NCBI GenBank assembly: GCA_963736255.1
Contig: CAVTOI010000002.1
Location: 428,411 to 492,410, forward strand
DNA from: Candidatus Aminicenantes bacterium
GTDB taxonomy: Bacteria; Acidobacteriota; Aminicenantia; Aminicenantales; Saccharicenantaceae
DNA: 64,000 bases
Direction: 5' to 3'
A program made the position numbers and the translations under genes. Positions within the stretch are counted from its first letter, which is position 1, and each line of letters opens with the position of its first letter. The notes below the pieces were generated by a model. It saw nothing but the letters and a program-made list of their open reading frames with translations. It had not been told where the DNA came from and did not search any database. Below are positions 24,700 to 54,548 of the stretch, piece after piece.

Positions 24700-24895
24700 C
24701 CCGCCGCTTTTTCGTTCTCCGTCTTCCGCCCGAAGACCGGTCGACCGCGGCTTAAAGAAGGTCTCCTGACTCCCGGATCGTCCTCCTCCCGAGCCTTCCA
24801 GCCTCATGGCCGTGGCGTCTCTCGGGATTCGTCCCCGGTTACAGTAGCGGGGGCTGTGTCCGCATCGGACGGACTTCCCTTCGGAATAAGCCGGG
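24700..24895 (-). promoter_or_regulatory. Cobalamin (B12) riboswitch in the leader of the TonB-dependent receptor.
   Basis: On the mRNA strand: GAAGGGAAGUCCG...GCGGACACAGCCCCCGCUACUGUAACCGGGG...GAGUCAGGAGACCUUC. The B12 box is the complement of 24761-24775. Confidence 0.75.
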
Positions 24896-24902
24896 GAGAA
24901 TT

Positions 24903-25043
24903 ATAGCAGATATGGGGGTCAAACCTATACCTTTTTAGTTTTAGCCCTTAAGATATTCCCCAAAATCGTGGCCTCGAGCGCTCGGCCGCGATTTTGTTGG
25001 TCGCTTCGGGGACTTCGCTTCCCGCCGTAGGTTTGACCCCATC
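24903..25043. repeat. 140-bp MITE/REPIN-like element flanked by 15-16-bp inverted repeats (ATGGGGGTCAAACCTA / TAGGTTTGACCCCAT).
   Basis: The IR core GGGGTCAAACCT is identical to the core of the 31-bp TIRs that flank the Y1 transposase element at 48341..49442. Confidence 0.6.
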
Positions 25044-25516
25044 TTAAATGGGAGGGAGGCTGCCCTGAACCGTCTTCAGATCAGGGCAGCCTCGGGATGG
25101 GAATGGGGGTCTATCGGGAATTATCGAAAAGGAGGTCGAGGCTTTTCATCTTCGTTGCTCATAAGATAGTACGCGGCCGGCAGGCGATCGGTTGCAGCCC
25201 GGGAAGAAGATAAGTAAGGGAGGGCCAGGCAGAGAGGGACAAAAAGCCTATTTACCGATTTTTTTTCCGATCCCCCTCAATGACCATTTTTAATTATACC
25301 ACAAGCCTGAGCGGAATGCAATAGCTTCTCCCGAGTTATCGAAAAATACACCCGGCGGACGCCCAACACGCCCGTTTTGACCTGAAAATGCCGTTCTTCG
25401 CCGGGTTCCCGAAAAACGCGTCCGGGCCGCCGTTTCCCTGGCGGTTTCCCCTGAAAACAGGTATATTGAGGATGGCTCTCCCGACGGCAAAAAGGCTCCA
25501 GAGCGAGGAGAAGGCC

Positions 25517-47230: not shown

Positions 47231-48343
47231 ATGGACGACTGGCAACGTTTGATGAAGGGCGTTCTCAGGAAACCCGAAGAGATCGCCCGGAAATTCGGGC
47301 TTGACGTCGAGGAGGTCCGCCGGATCGCCAAGGTGTTCAAGATCCAGATCACGCCGTACTATGCGGGCTTGATCAAGGAGCGGGGCGACGCCATGTGGCG
47401 CCAGATGGTCCCCGACCCGGCCGAGCTGAAGGAAGACACAGGGGTGGCAGACCCGCTCGAAGAAGACGCGGATTCGCCCGTTCCGAGCATCGTCCACCGC
47501 TACCCCGACCGCTGCCTGTTCCTCGTGTCGCACAGCTGCGCGTCGTTCTGCCGGTTCTGCACCCGGAAGAGGAAGGTCGGCGACCCGTCGAAGATCCACC
47601 CGCGCTATATCGAGGACGGCATCGAATACATCCGGAGGCACACGGAGCTCCGGGACGTCATCATTTCCGGCGGCGATCCGCTGATGCTCAGCGACCGCCG
47701 GCTTGAGGCTATCATCAAGGCCGTCAGGGGCATTCCCCACATCGAGATCATCCGTATCGGCACGCGCGTGCCGTGCGTCCTGCCGCAGAGGGTCACGGAA
47801 AAGCTCGTGGCCATGCTCAAGAAGTACCACCCGCTCTACGTCAACGTGCATTTCAACCACCCGGACGAGATCACGCCGGAGTCGTCGCGGGCGCTGAACC
47901 TGCTCGCCGACGCGGGGATCCCGCTCGGGAACCAGACCGTGCTCCTCAAGGGGGTCAACGACGACCCGCTGGTCATGCGGCGGCTTATGCAGAAGCTCCT
48001 GGCCGTGCGGGTCCGGCCCTATTACATCTACCAGGCGGACTATGTCTCGGGGACCGAGCACCTCAGGACGACGGTCGAGAAGGGCCTCGAGGTCATGGAG
48101 AGCCTGCGCGGCTGGACGTCCGGGCTGGCGGTGCCCTACTACTGCATCGACGCGCCCGGAGGCGGCGGCAAGATCCCGGTCCTGCCGAAGTACCTGCAGT
48201 CGATCACCGACGAGCAGGTCGTGCTGCGCAATTACGCCGGCGAGCTGTTCATCTACCCGCAGGTCAAGCCCAAGCCGAAGCGCCGGCCCCGGCCCGCGAC
48301 CGCCCCCTGCTACAGCTTCGACGGCGCCCCCCCGATGCCTTAA
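47231..48343 (+). CDS. kamA: Lysine 2,3-aminomutase (KamA family radical SAM).
   Basis: The CASFCRFCTRK cluster motif is present, together with the KamA family signatures (YPDRCLFLVSHSCA..., ISGGDPLM) and a C-terminal Cys. There is an AGGAG SD. The TAA stop lies inside the TIR of the downstream element. Confidence 0.8.
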   Translation: MDDWQRLMKGVLRKPEEIARKFGLDVEEVRRIAKVFKIQITPYYAGLIKERGDAMWRQMVPDPAELKEDTGVADPLEEDADSPVPSIVHRYPDRCLFLVSHSCASFCRFCTRKRKVGDPSKIHPRYIEDGIEYIRRHTELRDVIISGGDPLMLSDRRLEAIIKAVRGIPHIEIIRIGTRVPCVLPQRVTEKLVAMLKKYHPLYVNVHFNHPDEITPESSRALNLLADAGIPLGNQTVLLKGVNDDPLVMRRLMQKLLAVRVRPYYIYQADYVSGTEHLRTTVEKGLEVMESLRGWTSGLAVPYYCIDAPGGGGKIPVLPKYLQSITDEQVVLRNYAGELFIYPQVKPKPKRRPRPATAPCYSFDGAPPMP

Positions 48344-49442
48344 GAAGGGGTCAAACCTTAATTCTTATAATTTTCTGCCGCCGGAAAAGTCCCCGAATAT
48401 CAACGATTCCATTTCGGCGACAGCACGGCGGAGCGGCTCGCTCGAAACGATATCGCCCCTCATCTTCCGGAAGGCAACTGCAACCGCGATAGGGCCGATG
48501 TTAAAGAATTCCCCAATCTCCTTGAGTTTGTAGTTAGTATTCCTATGCGCAATGAAGATGGTCGCCTTTTTAACGAGCCTGTTTGTTGCTCCTAACCTGA
48601 AGACAGCAACAGAATGGATGGCCGATATTTCAGGTCTCTTTACGAGGCTCGGGATTTCGGACACCTCGCTATCGGCGTGTTCAAGCGCCTGTTTAAGGTG
48701 TAATCTGCGGATCTTCTCGATAAATTCGGCGTTACCCAAGATTCCGATCCGCTCCGCTTTGGCGAACTCGGGAAACGAGGACCAGTCCACGCTGGAATTG
48801 AGATATCGACTGTGCTCTGTCCGCATTGCCATCAAATCGCCTCCGAAGCAGCGGACGATCGTTTCGGTTGTGAGCCATGCTGGGGGGTCGATGAGTCCAA
48901 AATATGCCGCGGCACTTGACCATTTGAATTCTTCCGGGCGCTCGGCGAACCCCTTGCGCACGGGATTCCCATGTATGTACATCGTCAATACCCGGGCATA
49001 GGATTCTGTGTCTAATAGTATGGCCTTGAACCGGCCCTGGAAGAGATGCCCGCATCGATCATGTTTGAGGTTGAGATAGATCGAATACGTCGTGTTTATG
49101 AAGTGCATGATCTGAGAGAGATTGCCGACGGGGCACTCCAAAATGAAATGATAGTGGTTCGGCATCAGACAATAAACGTGGAAGTTGGCCGAAAACCTTT
49201 TGTGGGCATCATGAAGAACCTTCAGGAAATAGCATCGATCGTCATCGGAAAGGAAGATAGGCTGCTTCTGGTTCCCTCGGGAATAGACGTGATAAAAAGC
49301 GCCCGGATACTCGATACGGAGATGCCTGGCCATGATAGAGTCCTCGCCGCCGTATGCCTATCTTTTTAAGAGACGCAGAGCGGGAGGAGTTATTCTCTGA
49401 TGATGCGAAATATTATAAGAATTAAGGTTTGACCCCTTCTTA
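48341..49442. mobile_element. 1.1-kb transposable element. It carries a RAYT/IS200-like Y1 transposase gene flanked by perfect 31-bp terminal inverted repeats (TAAGAAGGGGTCAAACCTTAATTCTTATAAT).
   Basis: IR-L is 48341-48371 and IR-R is 49412-49442, and they are exact reverse complements. The same IR core occurs in the MITE-like repeat at 24903-25043. Confidence 0.75.
48365..49333 (-). CDS. HUH Y1 tyrosine transposase (REP-associated / IS200-like TnpA) with a C-terminal DnaA-type HTH domain.
   Basis: The HxH motif is HVYCLMPNHYHFILE. The catalytic-Tyr region reads SYARVLTMYIHGNPVRKG. The C-terminal HTH (KLKEIGEFFNIGPIAVAVAFRKMR) resembles DnaA domain IV. Confidence 0.75.
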   Translation of the reverse strand: MARHLRIEYPGAFYHVYSRGNQKQPIFLSDDDRCYFLKVLHDAHKRFSANFHVYCLMPNHYHFILECPVGNLSQIMHFINTTYSIYLNLKHDRCGHLFQGRFKAILLDTESYARVLTMYIHGNPVRKGFAERPEEFKWSSAAAYFGLIDPPAWLTTETIVRCFGGDLMAMRTEHSRYLNSSVDWSSFPEFAKAERIGILGNAEFIEKIRRLHLKQALEHADSEVSEIPSLVKRPEISAIHSVAVFRLGATNRLVKKATIFIAHRNTNYKLKEIGEFFNIGPIAVAVAFRKMRGDIVSSEPLRRAVAEMESLIFGDFSGGRKL

Positions 49443-51629
49443 GCGGGAGCTAGCCAGGTAGCTGCTGAGGCCGACCGACTTGACGAGGGCCAACGCATCC
49501 GCCCGGTCGACGCCGCGCTTCTGTTTCAGCGATTCGAGGATGCGGATGATGGAGAATGCGACCTCCGCCGTCTGCCCCGCCTCCGCCTGCCGCCCCTTGA
49601 GGTACTCTATCGCATCGTACAGGACCGCGTTCGCTTCGCCGTACGTCACCGGCCCGCGTGCGCCGTTGGCCTTGACCCACTCGGCCGTGCCCAGGACGTC
49701 GTTCACGTGGGATTGGATGAGGAACGTGGCCCGGCCGATGAGCTTGAGGTTGCTCGGGCTGACGTTGGTCATCGTATTGCCGATGACCTTGCCGAGCTTG
49801 GCCATGACCGCCGTCGAATGGGCGTTGAGCAGCATCTTGGCGGCCATCTGTTGCCTGATGCCGAACGGGTCGCCCTCGGCCTTCACGGATACGGGCACGA
49901 CGACGAGCCTCCCGGCCGCGCCCGCCCAGAGTCTCCGGACCCGGCCCGCGATCGCCGCGAACTCCTTCGACGGCTTGTCGGTCAGGAGGATCACGCCTGC
50001 GTCGGCGCCTCCCTCCGCGGCCAGCCTCAGGACCTTGGCGAAGGACGAGCTTGCCTCCTCGAATACGCGCTCTTCCGGCGTCAGTGCGACCAGGACGCAC
50101 AGATCGCCCTTCTTCGGCCCCCGCCCCTCCGTGTTCGCCTTGGACATCGAGAAATCGTAGAGGTCCGCCTGGTCGTCCCCCGCCTTCTTCAGGCTTTCCA
50201 GGGCCGCCCGCCGCAGATAGGGGTCGCCGACCTCCGTCTCGAACGGCCGCCTGTACATCTCCGGATCCAACCCCCGGAAAGGCCGGCCGAGGAAGGCGCG
50301 CCAAGCCTCGGCCTGGTTCGCCGCCTTAGTCCAGACCTGGATCCAGCACTTCCTCCGGGGCTCCTTGACGGTGTCCAGCGGGAAGAGCCGGAAGGTCGGG
50401 CTCCGTTCGGTGCTGTCGATGAAAACGGTGATCAAGCCGTTCTCGGCATAATAGGTCGAGAAGCGTCCGCCCGCGTAGGCCGCGGCCTCGACGTCCGTGA
50501 GGGCCGCCAGCTCCTGGAGGGCCCCTCGCGCGCCTTCCAGGACCCCGCCGAACTCGCCGAGCTTCGCTGCGACCCCGGTCGCTCCCCCCTCGCCCAAGCC
50601 CGCGCTCCGCGTTCCTCCGCCCTGAACCCGAGCCGGGCCATTTCCCGCGCCCCCAGCATCCCGCCCAGGGCCCGCTCCACAGCGGTCTCGACGATCGCCC
50701 CGACGACATAGGTCTCTATCGTCGTCGCCTGCATCCTCGTCGAGCCCGTGATGGACTGCGGCCCCGTCGTCAGGTTGATCTTGGTGATGCCCGGCTCGAG
50801 CAGCACGCTCCGGCTCCGGTCGAACGGCAGCAGCCTGTCGTCCGGGTTGTTGTAGACGAAGTAGAGGCTCTTGCGGCTCTCGGCGGGATCGTACCCCGGC
50901 TCGCCCCGCCACTCGTCGAGCGCAGCCAGCACCGTCCCGATGACCGAGGACGTCTCGCCGCCCTCGGTGACGCAGATGACGACATCGCCCTTCGCGATGC
51001 CCCGGTCGTGGAGCTGGAGCCGCCCGATGAGCTGGAGGTCCTCGAAGCCCTCGAGCGAGCTGATGAGGGCCCGGTCCGCGCCCGTCATCTCGCCGATCAG
51101 GCTCTCCTCGATCGCCGCCCCCGCCGGGATGCGGCCGGCCGCCTTCTTCCAGATCCTCCCGTCCGCCTTGACCTTCCGCCAGAACGGCCGCCAGAACGTG
51201 CTTTCCATCTGCTTGGCCAGCCGTCCCGTCGCCCCGCAGCCGTAGACGTAGATCTTCCTCCCGCCGAGGATGGCCGCTTCGACCGCCTTGGCCGCCTGCT
51301 CGAGCGCTTCCGGCGCCTTGGCGAGCTCGTTCATCCTGGCCAGGATATCGTCGTCGACAGACGACAGCATCTTCAGCCCGGCCAGCGTGTCCTTCTGGAT
51401 GCGCTCGCCGAGATACCACGTCTTCTGATGCCGCTGCTCCGTCAACAGCGTGTGGAGCTGGAACTGGGTCTTGGTCTGGACATAATCGATCGACTCCGCC
51501 GACGGTTCGATCCCGAGGAGTCTGAGCAGCCCGCCGCCCGTTTCGCCGGTCGGCGCGTCCTGACCCGGCATGCCGGCCAGCGCAAAGCATAACAAAACGC
51601 CGGCAATAGCCGCGCCCGCACGGAACATA
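49440..51629 (-). pseudogene. Tandem-SIS protein of the MurQ/GckR family (two MurQ-like etherase/isomerase halves) with an N-terminal signal-peptide-like segment. It is disrupted by several frameshifts.
   Basis: The N-terminal half reads LHTLLTEQRHQKT...YVYGCGATGRLAKQ...ITGSTRMQATT. The C-terminal half reads MAAKMLLNAHSTAVMAKLGKVIGNTMTNVSPSNLKLIGRATFLI. The pieces are spread over ORFs 50432..52531 and 49440..51659. The stop TAA is inside the right TIR of the transposon. Confidence 0.55.
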
Positions 51630-51852
51630 AGGAAAGCTCTCTGAGAGGCGGCGAGGCATGTCGCCCCGAAGCCCCCGTGAGTCAATAAAAAACTCTTCTC
51701 AGATATTTCGCAGAAGTCCGGCTCCGAGTTGCTCCGCCGCACTTCTGCCGGGTCGCTCTCCAGAGTTCGCTTCCCGCCGGCGGGGAAGCGAGGGGCGATA
51801 TCCTGAGCACAGCCTCGCGAGAGATTTCCTTTATGGCGGGCCGACGATTTCA

Positions 51853-52368
51853 TCAATCCTTCCCGTACTGGCGCTCGTCGTCGAGGATGTCGCGTTCCTG
51901 CCAGTCCCGGATCCAGTCCTCGACGCGGAAGATGATCTCCCCGCCGCCCGCCGCCGAGCAGACGACCCGGTCGAGCCCGCAGTTGACGAGCATCTTCTTG
52001 CAGATGTAGCACGGGAACGCGCTGATCGGGTCCGCCCCGCCCGGGGCACTGCCGTAGATGTACATGTTCCCGCCGAGCAGGCTGACGCCCGCCCGGGCGG
52101 CGTTGATGATGGCGTTCTGTTCGGCGTGGACGCTCCGGCAGAGCTCGTAGCGCTGGCCGTGGGGGATGCCCAGCTTGTCCCTCAGGCAGAAGCCGTGTTC
52201 GAGGCTGTCCTTCGTCTTCCTCGGCGCGCCGACGTAGCCCGTCGAGATGATCTGGTCGTCCCGGACGATGATGGCCCCGATGGCCCGGCGGAAACACGTG
52301 CTCCGCTTCGAGACCTCTTTGGCGATGTCCAGGTAGTACCGGTCCTTCGGGGTTCTCGGCGCCGTCAT
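51853..52368 (-). CDS. dCMP / cytidine-deoxycytidylate deaminase family protein.
   Basis: HAEQNAIINAA and PCYICKKMLVNCG are the zinc-binding motifs. Confidence 0.75.
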   Translation of the reverse strand: MTAPRTPKDRYYLDIAKEVSKRSTCFRRAIGAIIVRDDQIISTGYVGAPRKTKDSLEHGFCLRDKLGIPHGQRYELCRSVHAEQNAIINAARAGVSLLGGNMYIYGSAPGGADPISAFPCYICKKMLVNCGLDRVVCSAAGGGEIIFRVEDWIRDWQERDILDDERQYGKD

Positions 52369-52908
52369 GCGACCTCCTCGAGCTTGCGGTGGAATTCCAG
52401 GATGGTCCCGTCGTTGACGATAAGCCGGTCGGCCGCGGCCATGCACGCCTCGAGCTGCTGGGCCGTCGTCCCTCCGGTCCTCTCCTCGTCCTCTTTCTTC
52501 TTAAAGGCCTCGAGGTCGGCCGCCGATTCATCCCGCCCGCGCACCGCCACTCGCCCGAACCTCAGCGGCGATCGGGGCGTCGATGGCCAGCAGCACGAAG
52601 CCCTCCTGCCGGCGCAGATATTCGATCTCGCCCGTATTGCGGATGCTGTCGATGACCGCCCGCCCGCCGCCGATCTTATCGATCGTCCGCCGGGCCAGGA
52701 CGTCCGGACCGCCGAGCTCCCGGAGCTCGTTCCCGGTCCGGATGAGGTTGTCCCTGCTCGCGGACTCGCCCCGCTCCCGGAGCTCGTCCCGGATGACGTC
52801 GGACAGGGAGAAGTAGGCGTAGCCCCGGGTCCCGAAATACGCCGCGGCTTCGCCCTTGCCGGCCCCGTTGGTGCCGGTCAGCCCGATCAGCCGTGGCTTG
52901 GCGTTCAC
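52365..52908 (-). CDS. P-loop (d)NMP kinase-like protein, with a frameshift near 52540.
   Basis: GTG start, then the Walker A motif IGLTGTNGAGKGEAAAYF. The C-terminus continues in ORF 52365..52550. It has ATGA-type overlaps with both neighbours. Confidence 0.5.
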
Positions 52909-54548
52909 TTTTTCAGTATCCTGGGCAGGGCCCGGACGTAGTTCAGCAGGGGAGCGGTGGCTTTGAGCCGGGGCCACTCCTTGCGCAGCCCCAGGATGGC
53001 CTGCATTTTCGCCCGGAGCCCCCCGCCGTGGAAGATCGTGACCGCCTTCTCCATGATCCCGGACAGGCTGGCGTCGTACGGGAACCACCAGGTTTGGGCC
53101 TTTTTCCGGAAAAAGTCCTCCCCGACGAGCTTGATATTCACGAGCTCATGGAGGCCGTAGGGGCCGTGGGAGCGCCCCATGCCGGTCTGCTTGATGCCGC
53201 CCCAGATCGCCCTGGGCTCGCAGAAGGAATACATGTGATCATTGACCGTGACCGAGCCCGCCTCGAGACGCTCGGCGAACCAGGCCGCCCGCCGCCTGTC
53301 GCGCGTCCAGACTGAGGCCGTCAGCCCGTAGAGGCTGTCGTTGGCCAAGGCCACGGCACGTTCGTCGCCGTCGAAGGCCATGATGGGCAGGGTCGGGCCG
53401 AATGTCTCCTCGGTCATGCACCGCATCGTGTGGTCGACGCCGGTGAGGACCGTCGGCTCGAGGAAATGGCCGGCAAGGCCGGCCGGGCGGCCGCCGCCGA
53501 CAGGTATCCCCGCGCCCTTGGCCCGCGCGTCGGCGATGTGTTCCTCGACGAGCTGACGCTGGCCGGCCGTGGCCATCGGCCCCATGTCGACGCCTGGTTC
53601 GAGCGGATCCCCGACCCGGATCTGCCGGGCCAGCTCGACGACACGCGCCGTGAAAGCCTCGGCGACATTCCGCTCGACATAGACCCGCTCGACCGACCCG
53701 CAGCTCTGGCCGCAGTTCATGAAGGCCGTCCAGACGGCCCCCCGGGCAGCGCGCTCGATGTCGGCGTCCCCGAGGACGATCATCGGGTCCTTGCCGCCGA
53801 GCTCGAGGGTCAGGTTGGTCAGGTTCCGGCTGCAGAGCTCCATGATGCGCCTGCCGATACCGACGCTGCCGGTGAACATGACGGTCTGGACGTCCGGGTC
53901 GACGATCATGGCCTCGGCCAGGGGCGTCTTGCAGACGACGACGTTGAGGGCGCCGGGCGGCAGGCCGGCCTCGGCGAAGATCTCGCCGATGACGAGCGCC
54001 GCGAACGGCGTGGCTGTCGAAGGGCGGAGGACGACGGTGTTGCCCGCCGCGAGGGAGCTCATGACGTCGAACATGGGGATGAGGAACGGGAAGTTCCAGG
54101 GCGAGATGATGAGGGTCGGCCCGAGCGGATGGAAGTGATAAGTGGCCGATTTGTTGAGGAACAACGGCGTATAGTGCCCGTCCCGCTTCGGACGCAGGAG
54201 CCGGCCCATGTTCTCGGCATAATAGCCGAGGGACTGGAGGGCCCCGAAGACCTCGACCGCGAGCGATTCGGGATAGGGGGAGCCCTTCTCCCGGGCGATG
54301 AGCCGGGCGACCTCCGTCGCCCGCCGGGCCAGCACGTTCTCGGCCCGCTTGAGGATGTCCCGCTTCTCCCGGGGATCAAGCCAGCGCCAGACTGGATAGG
54401 CCGCCTTGGCGGCCGCAATGGCCTTCTCGCAAAGCTCCCGGGAGGCGACCGAGACCTCGCCCACGGCCTCGAGGGTGGCCGGGTTCTCGGAAACGAGCTT
54501 CTGGTCCGTCTCGATGCGCTCGCCGCCGATGATAAGGCGTCCGTCCAT
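52905..54548 (-). CDS. NAD(P)-dependent aldehyde dehydrogenase.
   Basis: LELGGKDP with the catalytic Cys in FMNCGQSC, plus other ALDH family motifs. Confidence 0.8.
   Translation of the reverse strand: MDGRLIIGGERIETDQKLVSENPATLEAVGEVSVASRELCEKAIAAAKAAYPVWRWLDPREKRDILKRAENVLARRATEVARLIAREKGSPYPESLAVEVFGALQSLGYYAENMGRLLRPKRDGHYTPLFLNKSATYHFHPLGPTLIISPWNFPFLIPMFDVMSSLAAGNTVVLRPSTATPFAALVIGEIFAEAGLPPGALNVVVCKTPLAEAMIVDPDVQTVMFTGSVGIGRRIMELCSRNLTNLTLELGGKDPMIVLGDADIERAARGAVWTAFMNCGQSCGSVERVYVERNVAEAFTARVVELARQIRVGDPLEPGVDMGPMATAGQRQLVEEHIADARAKGAGIPVGGGRPAGLAGHFLEPTVLTGVDHTMRCMTEETFGPTLPIMAFDGDERAVALANDSLYGLTASVWTRDRRRAAWFAERLEAGSVTVNDHMYSFCEPRAIWGGIKQTGMGRSHGPYGLHELVNIKLVGEDFFRKKAQTWWFPYDASLSGIMEKAVTIFHGGGLRAKMQAILGLRKEWPRLKATAPLLNYVRALPRILKK

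Follow-up and report, generated by a model that had tools for sequence, protein, structure and literature searches.

Organization of the Locus

The stretch of DNA analysed here (hereafter, the window) comprises 64 kb of a chromosome of Candidatus Aminicenantes bacterium (assembly GCA_963736255.1, contig CAVTOI010000002.1, positions 428,411–492,410); in GTDB, Aminicenantes are placed in Acidobacteriota. The subject of this report is an element at window positions 48341–49442, which consists of a gene for a Y1 transposase-like protein enclosed by two long inverted repeats (arms), and lies between a kamA gene and a gene for a SIS-like protein. Genes resembling those of REP-associated tyrosine transposases (RAYTs; REP, repetitive extragenic palindrome), but flanked by long non-REP terminal inverted repeats (TIRs), have been reported by Di Nocera, De Gregorio and Rocco (2013, BMC Genomics 14:522; PMC3733652) and named TIRtrons or TIRYTs. 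The features of the element and its two neighbours are listed below (HTH, helix-turn-helix).

48341..48374, plus strand: left TIR (kamA side); conserved unit AAGAAGGGGTCAAACCTTAATTCTTATAATTTTC, with unit boundaries taken from 70 dispersed copies
48347..48357, plus strand: core of the left TIR, GGGGTCAAACC; agrees with the published TIRYT motif GGGGWSAS (PMC3733652) at 7/8 positions
48365..49333, minus strand: Y1 gene (putative TIRYT gene), 322 aa; RAYT-like HUH/Y1 domain (approximately aa 5–140), helical linker, DnaA-domain-IV-like HTH (approximately aa 250–315)
49334..49408, minus strand: 5′ untranslated and putative promoter region, from the upstream TIR to the Y1 start codon
49409..49442, minus strand: right TIR (SIS side); inverted copy of the left arm
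49426..49436, minus strand: core of the right TIR, GGGGTCAAACC; the 12-mer GGGGTCAAACCT is found at 49425–49436 on the minus strand
47231..48343, plus strand: KamA-family radical SAM aminomutase gene, left neighbour; outside the element, one side of the hot spot described below
49440..51659, minus strand: SIS-like gene, right neighbour (approximately 750 aa in orthologs); outside the element, other side of the hot spot

The two arms (48341–48374 and 49409–49442) are 34 nt long with 97% complementarity, and contain the perfect 31-bp inverted repeat (48341–48371 and 49412–49442) that was described around the 322-aa Y1 gene in an earlier note on this stretch. An inverted repeat of this kind was found in none of 100 dinucleotide-preserving shuffles. 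The minus-strand Y1 open reading frame (ORF; 48365..49333) is the single credible gene between the arms. The stop codon TAA of kamA (48341–48343) constitutes the initial three nucleotides of the left arm, the TAA of the SIS-like gene is the complement of the final three nucleotides of the right arm (49440–49442), and the stop of the Y1 gene (complement of 48365–48367) is also located inside the left arm. The G–C content of the element is 0.47–0.55, compared with 0.63–0.70 in the flanks. On the left side, kamA closes an operon composed of two ATP-grasp genes, an acetyltransferase gene and kamA itself. No tnpB gene and only one copy of the whole element were found in the 64-kb window, and no subterminal hairpins of the IS200/IS605 kind were seen at the element.

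A TATAAT hexamer at the inner TIR end points toward the Y1 gene. A promoter inside the TIR was nevertheless rejected, since the hexamer has no acceptable −35 partner and the promoter scan, which gave one weak sigma70-like match at 49360–49332, did not rise above shuffles. The terminator role suggested for the element in the earlier note found no support in a terminator scan of the locus, which detected no such site.

The Y1/HTH Protein

The motifs MPNHYHFIL (HUH) and YIHGNPV (Tyr region), which had been pointed out before, are present in the 322-aa protein, and the protein matches Pfam Y1_Tnp (8e-10). The NCBIfam model REP_Tyr_transpos (NF047646) aligned over its full length (3–146) with 74.8 bits, against a cut-off of 80. 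The search for homologs yielded 4443 matches, chiefly in Aminicenantes/Acidobacteriota metagenome bins, some of which are called RayT by JGI. Residues H60, H62, Y119, H121, N123 and P124 are invariant across 48 aligned homologs.

The C-terminal DnaA-like HTH claimed in the earlier note is real at the family level. Matches to Pfam Bac_DnaA_C were obtained for 20 of 36 family members (and to HTH_23 for two), and the family profile matched structures of DnaA domain IV (3pvp, E = 0.001; also 8btg, 2z4r and 1j1v). When the single protein sequence was used to search the sequences of the PDB, no match was found; information came solely from the family profile and from the fold search. The AlphaFold2 (AF2) model (mean pLDDT, 85) has its top match among solved structures in the E. 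coli TnpA-REP/RAYT protein 4er8 (E-value, 1e-6; TMt, 0.76), with the TnpA structures of IS200, ISDra2 and IS608 ranking behind it, and the C-terminal part of the model superimposes on the DnaA DNA-binding domain 3pvp with a TM of 0.72–0.73 (2.2–2.8 Å).

Related loci in other genomes are cited below by number (L001 and so on). Compared with the L002 allele, the Y1 gene has a dN/dS of 0.12 and a dS of 1.5, which is threefold that of the neighbouring genes (0.4–0.5), and the low G–C content is kept in both lineages. As judged from its sequence, the Y1 gene is intact and under purifying selection.

Terminal Inverted Repeats

Folding of one arm as single-stranded DNA (ssDNA) yields only −2.5 kcal/mol (z −0.6), a value also reached by 51 of 200 shuffles. 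None of the tetramers GTAG, CTAC, CGTC and GACG occurs on either strand of TAAGAAGGGGTCAAACCTTAATTCTTATAAT. Because a single arm has neither a hairpin of its own nor a GTAG/CGTC tag, the arms are TIRs and not REPs. Thus, from the REP-RAYT-REP architecture proposed in the earlier note, the RAYT-like Y1 gene between inverted repeat copies stands, while the designation of the arms as REPs does not.

The core of the window arms, GGGGTCAA, matches GGGGWSAS at seven of eight positions, with A instead of S at the last, and the core GGGGTCAG of a variant at the same hot spot (L134) matches at all eight. Every Y1 allele retains the core GGGGTCAAACC or a form of it that differs by one base, while the 15–20 nt inward of the core are allele-specific: TIRs of the clade with 64–100% Y1 identity read ...CCTTAATTCTTATAATTTT, and those of other alleles include CCTACGCRATGCCAG, CCTACCTTTCGTTAC and CCTATACCTTTTTAG. 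The TIR variant and the Y1 allele therefore co-vary around a constant core.

The TTA on both flanks, which had been taken as a possible target duplication, is literally there, but belongs to the inverted symmetry (T+AA / TT+A) and not to a direct repeat. A target-site duplication is not supported, as no conserved base was found outside the unit in the 70 copies and no direct repeat at the junctions. The statement that the TAA ends of the arms serve as stop codons of both neighbours holds in part. The overlap is real and a trait of the whole repeat family, but only the AA of each TAA is contributed by the element; the T is host sequence, given that conservation ends with the AAGA... unit and does not extend to the base beyond it.

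Dispersed Repeat Family

The earlier note had proposed a genome-wide search for the repeat, and such a search was positive in related genomes. Dispersal counts were obtained from a species-representative genome collection (8-kb tiles) that does not include the window's own genome. The 18-mer GGGGTCAAACCTTAATTC was found in 91 tiles, all but four of which belong to metagenome-assembled genomes (MAGs) of Aminicenantes, and in six MAGs it is present in 11–30 exact copies each. In total, 78 inverted doublets were identified, with outer spans that cluster at 81–86, 92–97, 105–114 and 128–141 nt. The conserved unit of the doublet arms is AAGAnGGGGTCAAACCTTAATTCTTATAATTTTC (70 doublets), and a doublet folds into one long hairpin (−36 kcal/mol, z −12.6). 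Other repeat subfamilies have only the core in common.

The inner segments of the doublets have a high G–C content, and most show no relation from copy to copy. Two genomes each have one inner sequence at two loci, in either orientation, which is evidence for the movement of whole doublets. The inner segments (78 doublets, L027–L117) fall into length classes of approximately 17–22, 28–33, 41–50 and 64–77 nt, with the two commonest classes about 10–11 nt, i.e., one helical turn, apart. Doublets are often found at positions that are orthologous between species, and about 90% of the arm sequence is conserved there. At some of these positions (L030:1240-1322/L090:1454-1537, L043/L059, L096/L116 and L029/L088) the arms are about 90% identical and the inner segment is at shuffle level in either orientation, while in the pairs L105/L113 and L080/L099 the inner segment is 83–96% identical. 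Inversion of the inner segments between the arms, as a reason for their unrelated sequences, was tested and found no support, because the flipped orientation was no better than shuffles. Carriage by phages was dismissed, as no TIR was found on viral contigs and only a single distant relative (34%) was encountered.

A type-A Y1 gene (the type associated with the first repeat family) was found in none of the 91 genome tiles. Short-read contigs with family members begin and end in TIR cores (L019, 1091 bp; L026, 1531 bp; and many Logan contigs of 1.08–1.11 kb). The many Logan contigs of about 1.09 kb were not accepted as a sign of a multicopy element, since both of their ends lie within the arms (L019, L026). 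With the k-mer size of Logan assemblies assumed to be 31, an inverted repeat of at least 31 nt alone ends the assembly and explains such contigs. The inverted repeat breaks the assembly graph, so that TIRtrons probably tend to drop out of binned MAGs. For annotation, the lesson is that these elements break k = 31 assemblies at their arms.

Abutment of Stop Codons

Using rough, GC3-based gene calls (GC3, G–C content at third codon positions), none of the 78 doublets was found to be intragenic, and for 49 of the 61 adjacent gene 3′ ends the distance to an arm is no more than 20 nt. The most frequent arrangement (15 cases) is a 2-nt overlap in which the stop codon is made of a host T and the AA of the unit, as at both window arms. 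In a second class (5 cases), the gene reads into the arm and stops at CCT-TAA, like the SIS gene in L021. The overlap with stop codons thus reflects a family-wide preference of insertion or retention and not a peculiarity of this locus: the AAGA... end of the unit, which is conserved, either overlaps the stop codon or lies against it, hence the T+AA of the arms at the end of both neighbours.

The kamA/SIS Junction as a Hot Spot

Homologs with 90, 71, 64, 56 and 52% identity to the window protein are all located between a SIS-like gene and kamA. The window and L002 align collinearly (83%), without interruption through the element, and at six syntenic loci kamA identity is 86–93% and Y1 identity 43–71%. 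In a survey of kamA at 80 metagenome loci, the relatives with kamA at least 88% identical were compared. Of these, 19 carry a Y1 gene whose product is 34–94% identical to the window protein (the 34 and 50% matches are partial; the full-length ones span 42–94%), and nine are without Y1.

The search for an empty site in related genomes, also suggested in the earlier note, was successful: among the nine loci without Y1, L143 is truly empty, with kamA and the SIS-like gene overlapping tail to tail. In L134, a minimal palindrome with the core GGGGTCAG is present. Solo doublets are found at the junction in L136, L137 and L139, a solo arm provides the kamA stop in L142, and 10-nt arm remnants are left in L118 and L159 (kamA 97% identical). 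One of the 19 loci with Y1, L119:5110-6300 (kamA 96% identical), has its Y1 gene reversed with respect to the flanks; both recombination between inverted arms and insertion in either orientation would lead to this.

The MAG POMEDNA-B01 presents a further state. Its flanks are 84–89% identical to the window up to the arms, and type-A arms persist beside both neighbours; the Y1 protein between them is only 43% identical, and its gene is bracketed by a second (type-B) repeat family, AAGAAGGGACCGGGTCTTCGCAAGG. The second family (AAGAAGGGACCGGGTCTTCGCA...), which itself forms doublets, is nested in type-A doublets at no fewer than five loci of this MAG (L038:1858-2032, L042:1826-1992, L046:1586-1726, L063:2616-2745 and L069:2393-2595). 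Its insertions are often found immediately after ...AATTCTTA, which points to preferential targeting of one TIR family by another.

Ancient vertical residence was rejected as the whole story in view of a 43% identical Y1 within 84–89% identical flanks and of the empty, solo and alternative states in the kamA survey. Nor is the element a simple recent insertion, as related elements occupy the site across the whole clade, with turnover. The simplest reading of these comparisons would be that whole TIR-gene-TIR units have been repeatedly replaced at the kamA/SIS junction.

Interpretation and Alternative Explanations

Taken together, the locus is most probably (at a rough probability of 0.8) a TIRtron, i.e., a TIRYT gene bracketed by its cognate TIRs of about 34 nt in a chromosome of Aminicenantes (Acidobacteriota). 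The TIRYT protein would then be a fusion between a RAYT-like HUH/Y1 nuclease acting on single-stranded DNA and an HTH similar to DnaA domain IV. In the mechanism proposed, the HTH and/or the Y1 domain would recognise the TIR, with the DnaA-like HTH as a candidate for binding the invariant core, and the Y1 tyrosine may nick and rejoin ssDNA at the TIR boundaries in the manner of the IS200/IS605 TnpA proteins and E. coli TnpA-REP. Short TIR-spacer-TIR doublets, which resemble miniature inverted-repeat transposable elements (MITEs) or REPINs and form long hairpins as ssDNA, would be mobilised in trans, the entire TIR-gene-TIR unit presumably more rarely, and the insertions would land at gene 3′ ends. 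DNA binding, the cleavage sites, an ssDNA intermediate and present-day activity are proposed here on the model of IS608, ISDra2 and E. coli TnpA-REP.

Several observations weigh against this interpretation. The window protein taken alone is below the threshold of Pfam Bac_DnaA_C and under the NCBIfam cut-off (74.8 vs 80), and its TIR core departs from the published motif at the final position. Most doublets have mutually unrelated inner segments, which would not be expected for a simple copy-and-paste MITE, and their frequent occurrence at orthologous positions in different species implies that recent mobility is limited. Apart from the two arms, the only repeat copy in the 64-kb window is a degenerate doublet of another subfamily, the gene calls behind the stop-codon statistic are crude, and TIRYT binding, cleavage and transposition are all points that we infer.

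A domesticated REPIN-RAYT system in the strict sense, in which a single-copy, vertically inherited and immobile RAYT flanked by REPs maintains a REPIN population, is near to the framing of the earlier note. It would account for the constant location of the gene, which lies between the SIS-like gene and kamA even in homologs of 52% identity, for the orthologous positions of doublets with arms about 90% conserved across species, for 4er8 (an E. coli RAYT) as the nearest solved fold and for the name RayT given to some homologs by JGI. The arm, however, is not a palindromic REP and has no GTAG tag, and the NCBIfam RAYT score is under its cut-off. Y1 identity (42–94%) is decoupled from kamA identity (88–99%), with a Y1 dS of 1.5 against 0.4–0.5. 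Presence/absence and orientation polymorphism occurs among genomes with kamA 96–97% identical, and each allele has its own TIR variant, which points to whole-unit replacement and not to pure vertical descent. The present data also point toward a Y1 tree that is incongruent with the kamA/genome tree, with breakpoints at the TIRs. Strict domestication is therefore considered improbable.

An unlikely reading, though one with several observations in its favour, takes the outer arms (AAGAnGGGGTCAAACC) as fixed docking sites between whose cores the interior is swapped by the Y1 enzyme or by homologous recombination. The exchanged interior would be a short spacer, another repeat family or the Y1 gene, and the process would be closer to attC-type site-specific recombination than to transposition. 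The behaviour of orthologous sites is bimodal, in that at several the arms are conserved and the inner segment is at shuffle level, while at others the inner segment tracks the flanks. POMEDNA-B01 keeps type-A arms by kamA and SIS around a 43% identical Y1 with type-B repeats, type-B doublets are nested in type-A doublets at a minimum of five loci, and the core is invariant over all alleles. On the other hand, in most variants of the hot spot the arm inward of the core changes with the Y1 allele, for which whole-unit replacement is an equally good explanation; this co-variation weakens "arms fixed, cargo swapped" as a general rule, which was kept as a minority reading. The inner segments are short (25–50 nt), which limits the statistical power with which they can be called unrelated, nested insertion is common in ordinary MITEs, and no donor copies of the swapped inner segments were found. 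In its fullest form, to which only a small chance is given, the paired cores would be permanent docking sites at gene ends, the interior (including the Y1 gene, in either orientation) would be exchanged by the Y1/HTH enzyme, and insertion would be targeted to stop codons. If true, this would amount to a site-specific cassette-swapping system run by a HUH nuclease and not to a conventional transposon, with the element supplying or preserving stop codons.

For an ordinary, recently inserted autonomous insertion sequence (IS) of the IS200/IS605 family, one may cite the Pfam Y1_Tnp match, the low G–C content against the flanks and the empty site in one relative; it is very doubtful all the same, because long TIRs stand in place of subterminal LE/RE hairpins, tnpB is missing and only one copy is present in 64 kb, and the same site is occupied throughout a clade. 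In addition, the fold is nearer to RAYT than to the TnpA of IS200, IS608 or ISDra2, there is an additional C-terminal region of 180 aa, and the low G–C content is retained in alleles that have diverged to a dS of 1.5. Least credible of all is the case named in the earlier note as its refutation, in which the palindrome would be local and serve kamA and the convergent SIS gene as a terminator or regulatory structure, without any mobility. The arms are placed exactly at the two convergent gene ends, as this would predict, but they are 1 kb apart, the scan gave no terminator-like site, and the empty relative, in which the genes overlap tail to tail, has no such structure. Moreover, the same sequence is dispersed over many unrelated loci in related genomes, which already refutes this explanation and excludes a unique local palindrome for the family.

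Other Features of the Window

A second member of the repeat superfamily was found in the window:

24910..25045, no strand assigned: Y1-less doublet; inverted core pair at 24915–24927 and 25028–25040

The left arm of this doublet is the TIR variant of the L128 allele (54% identity), and the right arm consists of the core only. The doublet was therefore not retained as a decayed type-A copy, the left arm having proved to be of the L128 type. The orthologous locus L062 has a complete type-A TIR as its left arm and a deletion in place of the right one. The doublet lies directly 5′ of a cobalamin riboswitch (Rfam RF00174, 90.5 bits) at 24739–24903 on the minus strand, in the presumed promoter region of the riboswitch-controlled gene. 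It is adjoined by a perfect 13-bp hairpin at 25056–25093 (GAGGCTGCCCTGA / TCAGGGCAGCCTC, 12-nt loop); this hairpin is also conserved in L062 and resembles the stem of an ordinary terminator.

To the right of the element, the SIS-like gene is split by a frameshift near 50,619–50,633 (within 49440–52531, minus strand; tblastn frames −2, then −1). The gene is whole (approximately 750 aa) in L002, L018 and L021, and fragmented in L001 much like in the window; the frameshifted copy in the window is either a pseudogene or the result of an assembly indel error. The aldehyde dehydrogenase gene at 52905–54548 (minus strand) constitutes a second presence/absence polymorphism nearby. The window and L018 have it, L020 has it in two pieces, and L072, L021 and L022 lack it at that position; no TIR core was found at its borders.

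Comparison with Known Systems

The element fits the TIRtron/TIRYT class, corresponding to TnpA-REP subclass 2.1 of Quentin, Siguier, Chandler and Fichant (2018; PMC6006769). The earlier note had presented it as an exception to the TIR-less IS200/IS605 elements; its architecture is instead that of a kind of mobile element that had already been named (PMC3733652) and classed (PMC6006769), is almost unstudied, and is met here in a new host lineage. In the literature searched, TIRYTs are mentioned only by these two papers, and no experimental work is reported in what they say of them.

In common with published TIRtrons, the element has a RAYT-like Y1 gene flanked by long non-hairpin TIRs, a TIR core resembling GGGGWSAS (GGGGTCAA here; GGGGTCAG in variants at the same site) and a TIR that overlaps the 3′ end of this gene. 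According to PMC3733652, the motif GGGGWSAS is common to many, but not all, of the published TIRs, and the TIR families are moderately abundant, occurring as singles, dimers or groups. The membership of the TIR in a dispersed family, which is optional in the published definition, was demonstrated here in related genomes. The same paper describes a sharply defined group in Acidobacteria, and the host here belongs to Aminicenantes. The differences are the new host lineage (Aminicenantes MAGs) and the last position of the core, which is A and not S. A single hot spot with multiple states, an allele-specific TIR extension around an invariant 11-nt core, insertion that abuts stop codons and nesting of a second repeat family do not seem to be part of the description given in PMC3733652.

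In PMC6006769, 20 of 26 TIRYTs are assigned to TnpA-REP subclass 2.1, which is characterised by a C-terminal domain similar to Bac_DnaA_C, HTH_23 or HTH_28 and by the lack of typical REPs. The window element resembles this subclass (2.1.2) in its long Y1 protein, its C-terminal Bac_DnaA_C/HTH-like domain and the lack of typical REPs beside the gene, a likeness based on these features. It differs in having a dispersed population of the flanking repeat, where no REP-like sequences were found for the subclass in PMC6006769.

The REPIN-RAYT systems (Nunvar 2010; Bertels & Rainey 2011; PMC5581495) are similar in several respects: 4er8 is the nearest fold, there is usually a single gene between inverted repeat copies that also form dispersed, hairpin-forming doublets, and the doublets persist for a long time at orthologous sites. 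They form a contrasting class, described by Bertels et al. (2017; PMC5581495) as single-copy, vertically inherited RAYTs with abundant flanking 16-mers. Here, GTAG is missing from a repeat unit that is not itself palindromic, an HTH domain is added to the protein, and copies number in the tens, fewer than for Group 2/3 REPINs; the gene, though syntenic in position across the clade, shows allele turnover and presence/absence polymorphism. The HUH/Y1 catalytic core is shared with IS200/IS605 elements (IS608, ISDra2), by analogy with which the chemistry is probably of the ssDNA "peel and paste" type. Those elements, however, are without TIRs, use subterminal hairpins, insert 3′ of a target of 4–5 nt, are multicopy and often carry tnpB, none of which was seen here.

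To a specialist, the element itself would be unsurprising, while the series of states at the hot spot and the precise overlap with stop codons are unusually concrete handles on the working of TIRYTs. The kamA/SIS junction over dozens of related genomes amounts to a natural experiment, in which empty sites, a minimal palindrome, a solo arm, solo doublets, arm remnants, TIRtrons of varied alleles and orientations and a nested second family can be compared. The invariant 11-nt core, the allele-specific TIR extensions and the 2-nt stop overlap lead to concrete predictions for the binding and cleavage sites, and these bear on the question of how true TIRs and a DnaA-like HTH are used by a HUH/Y1 nuclease.

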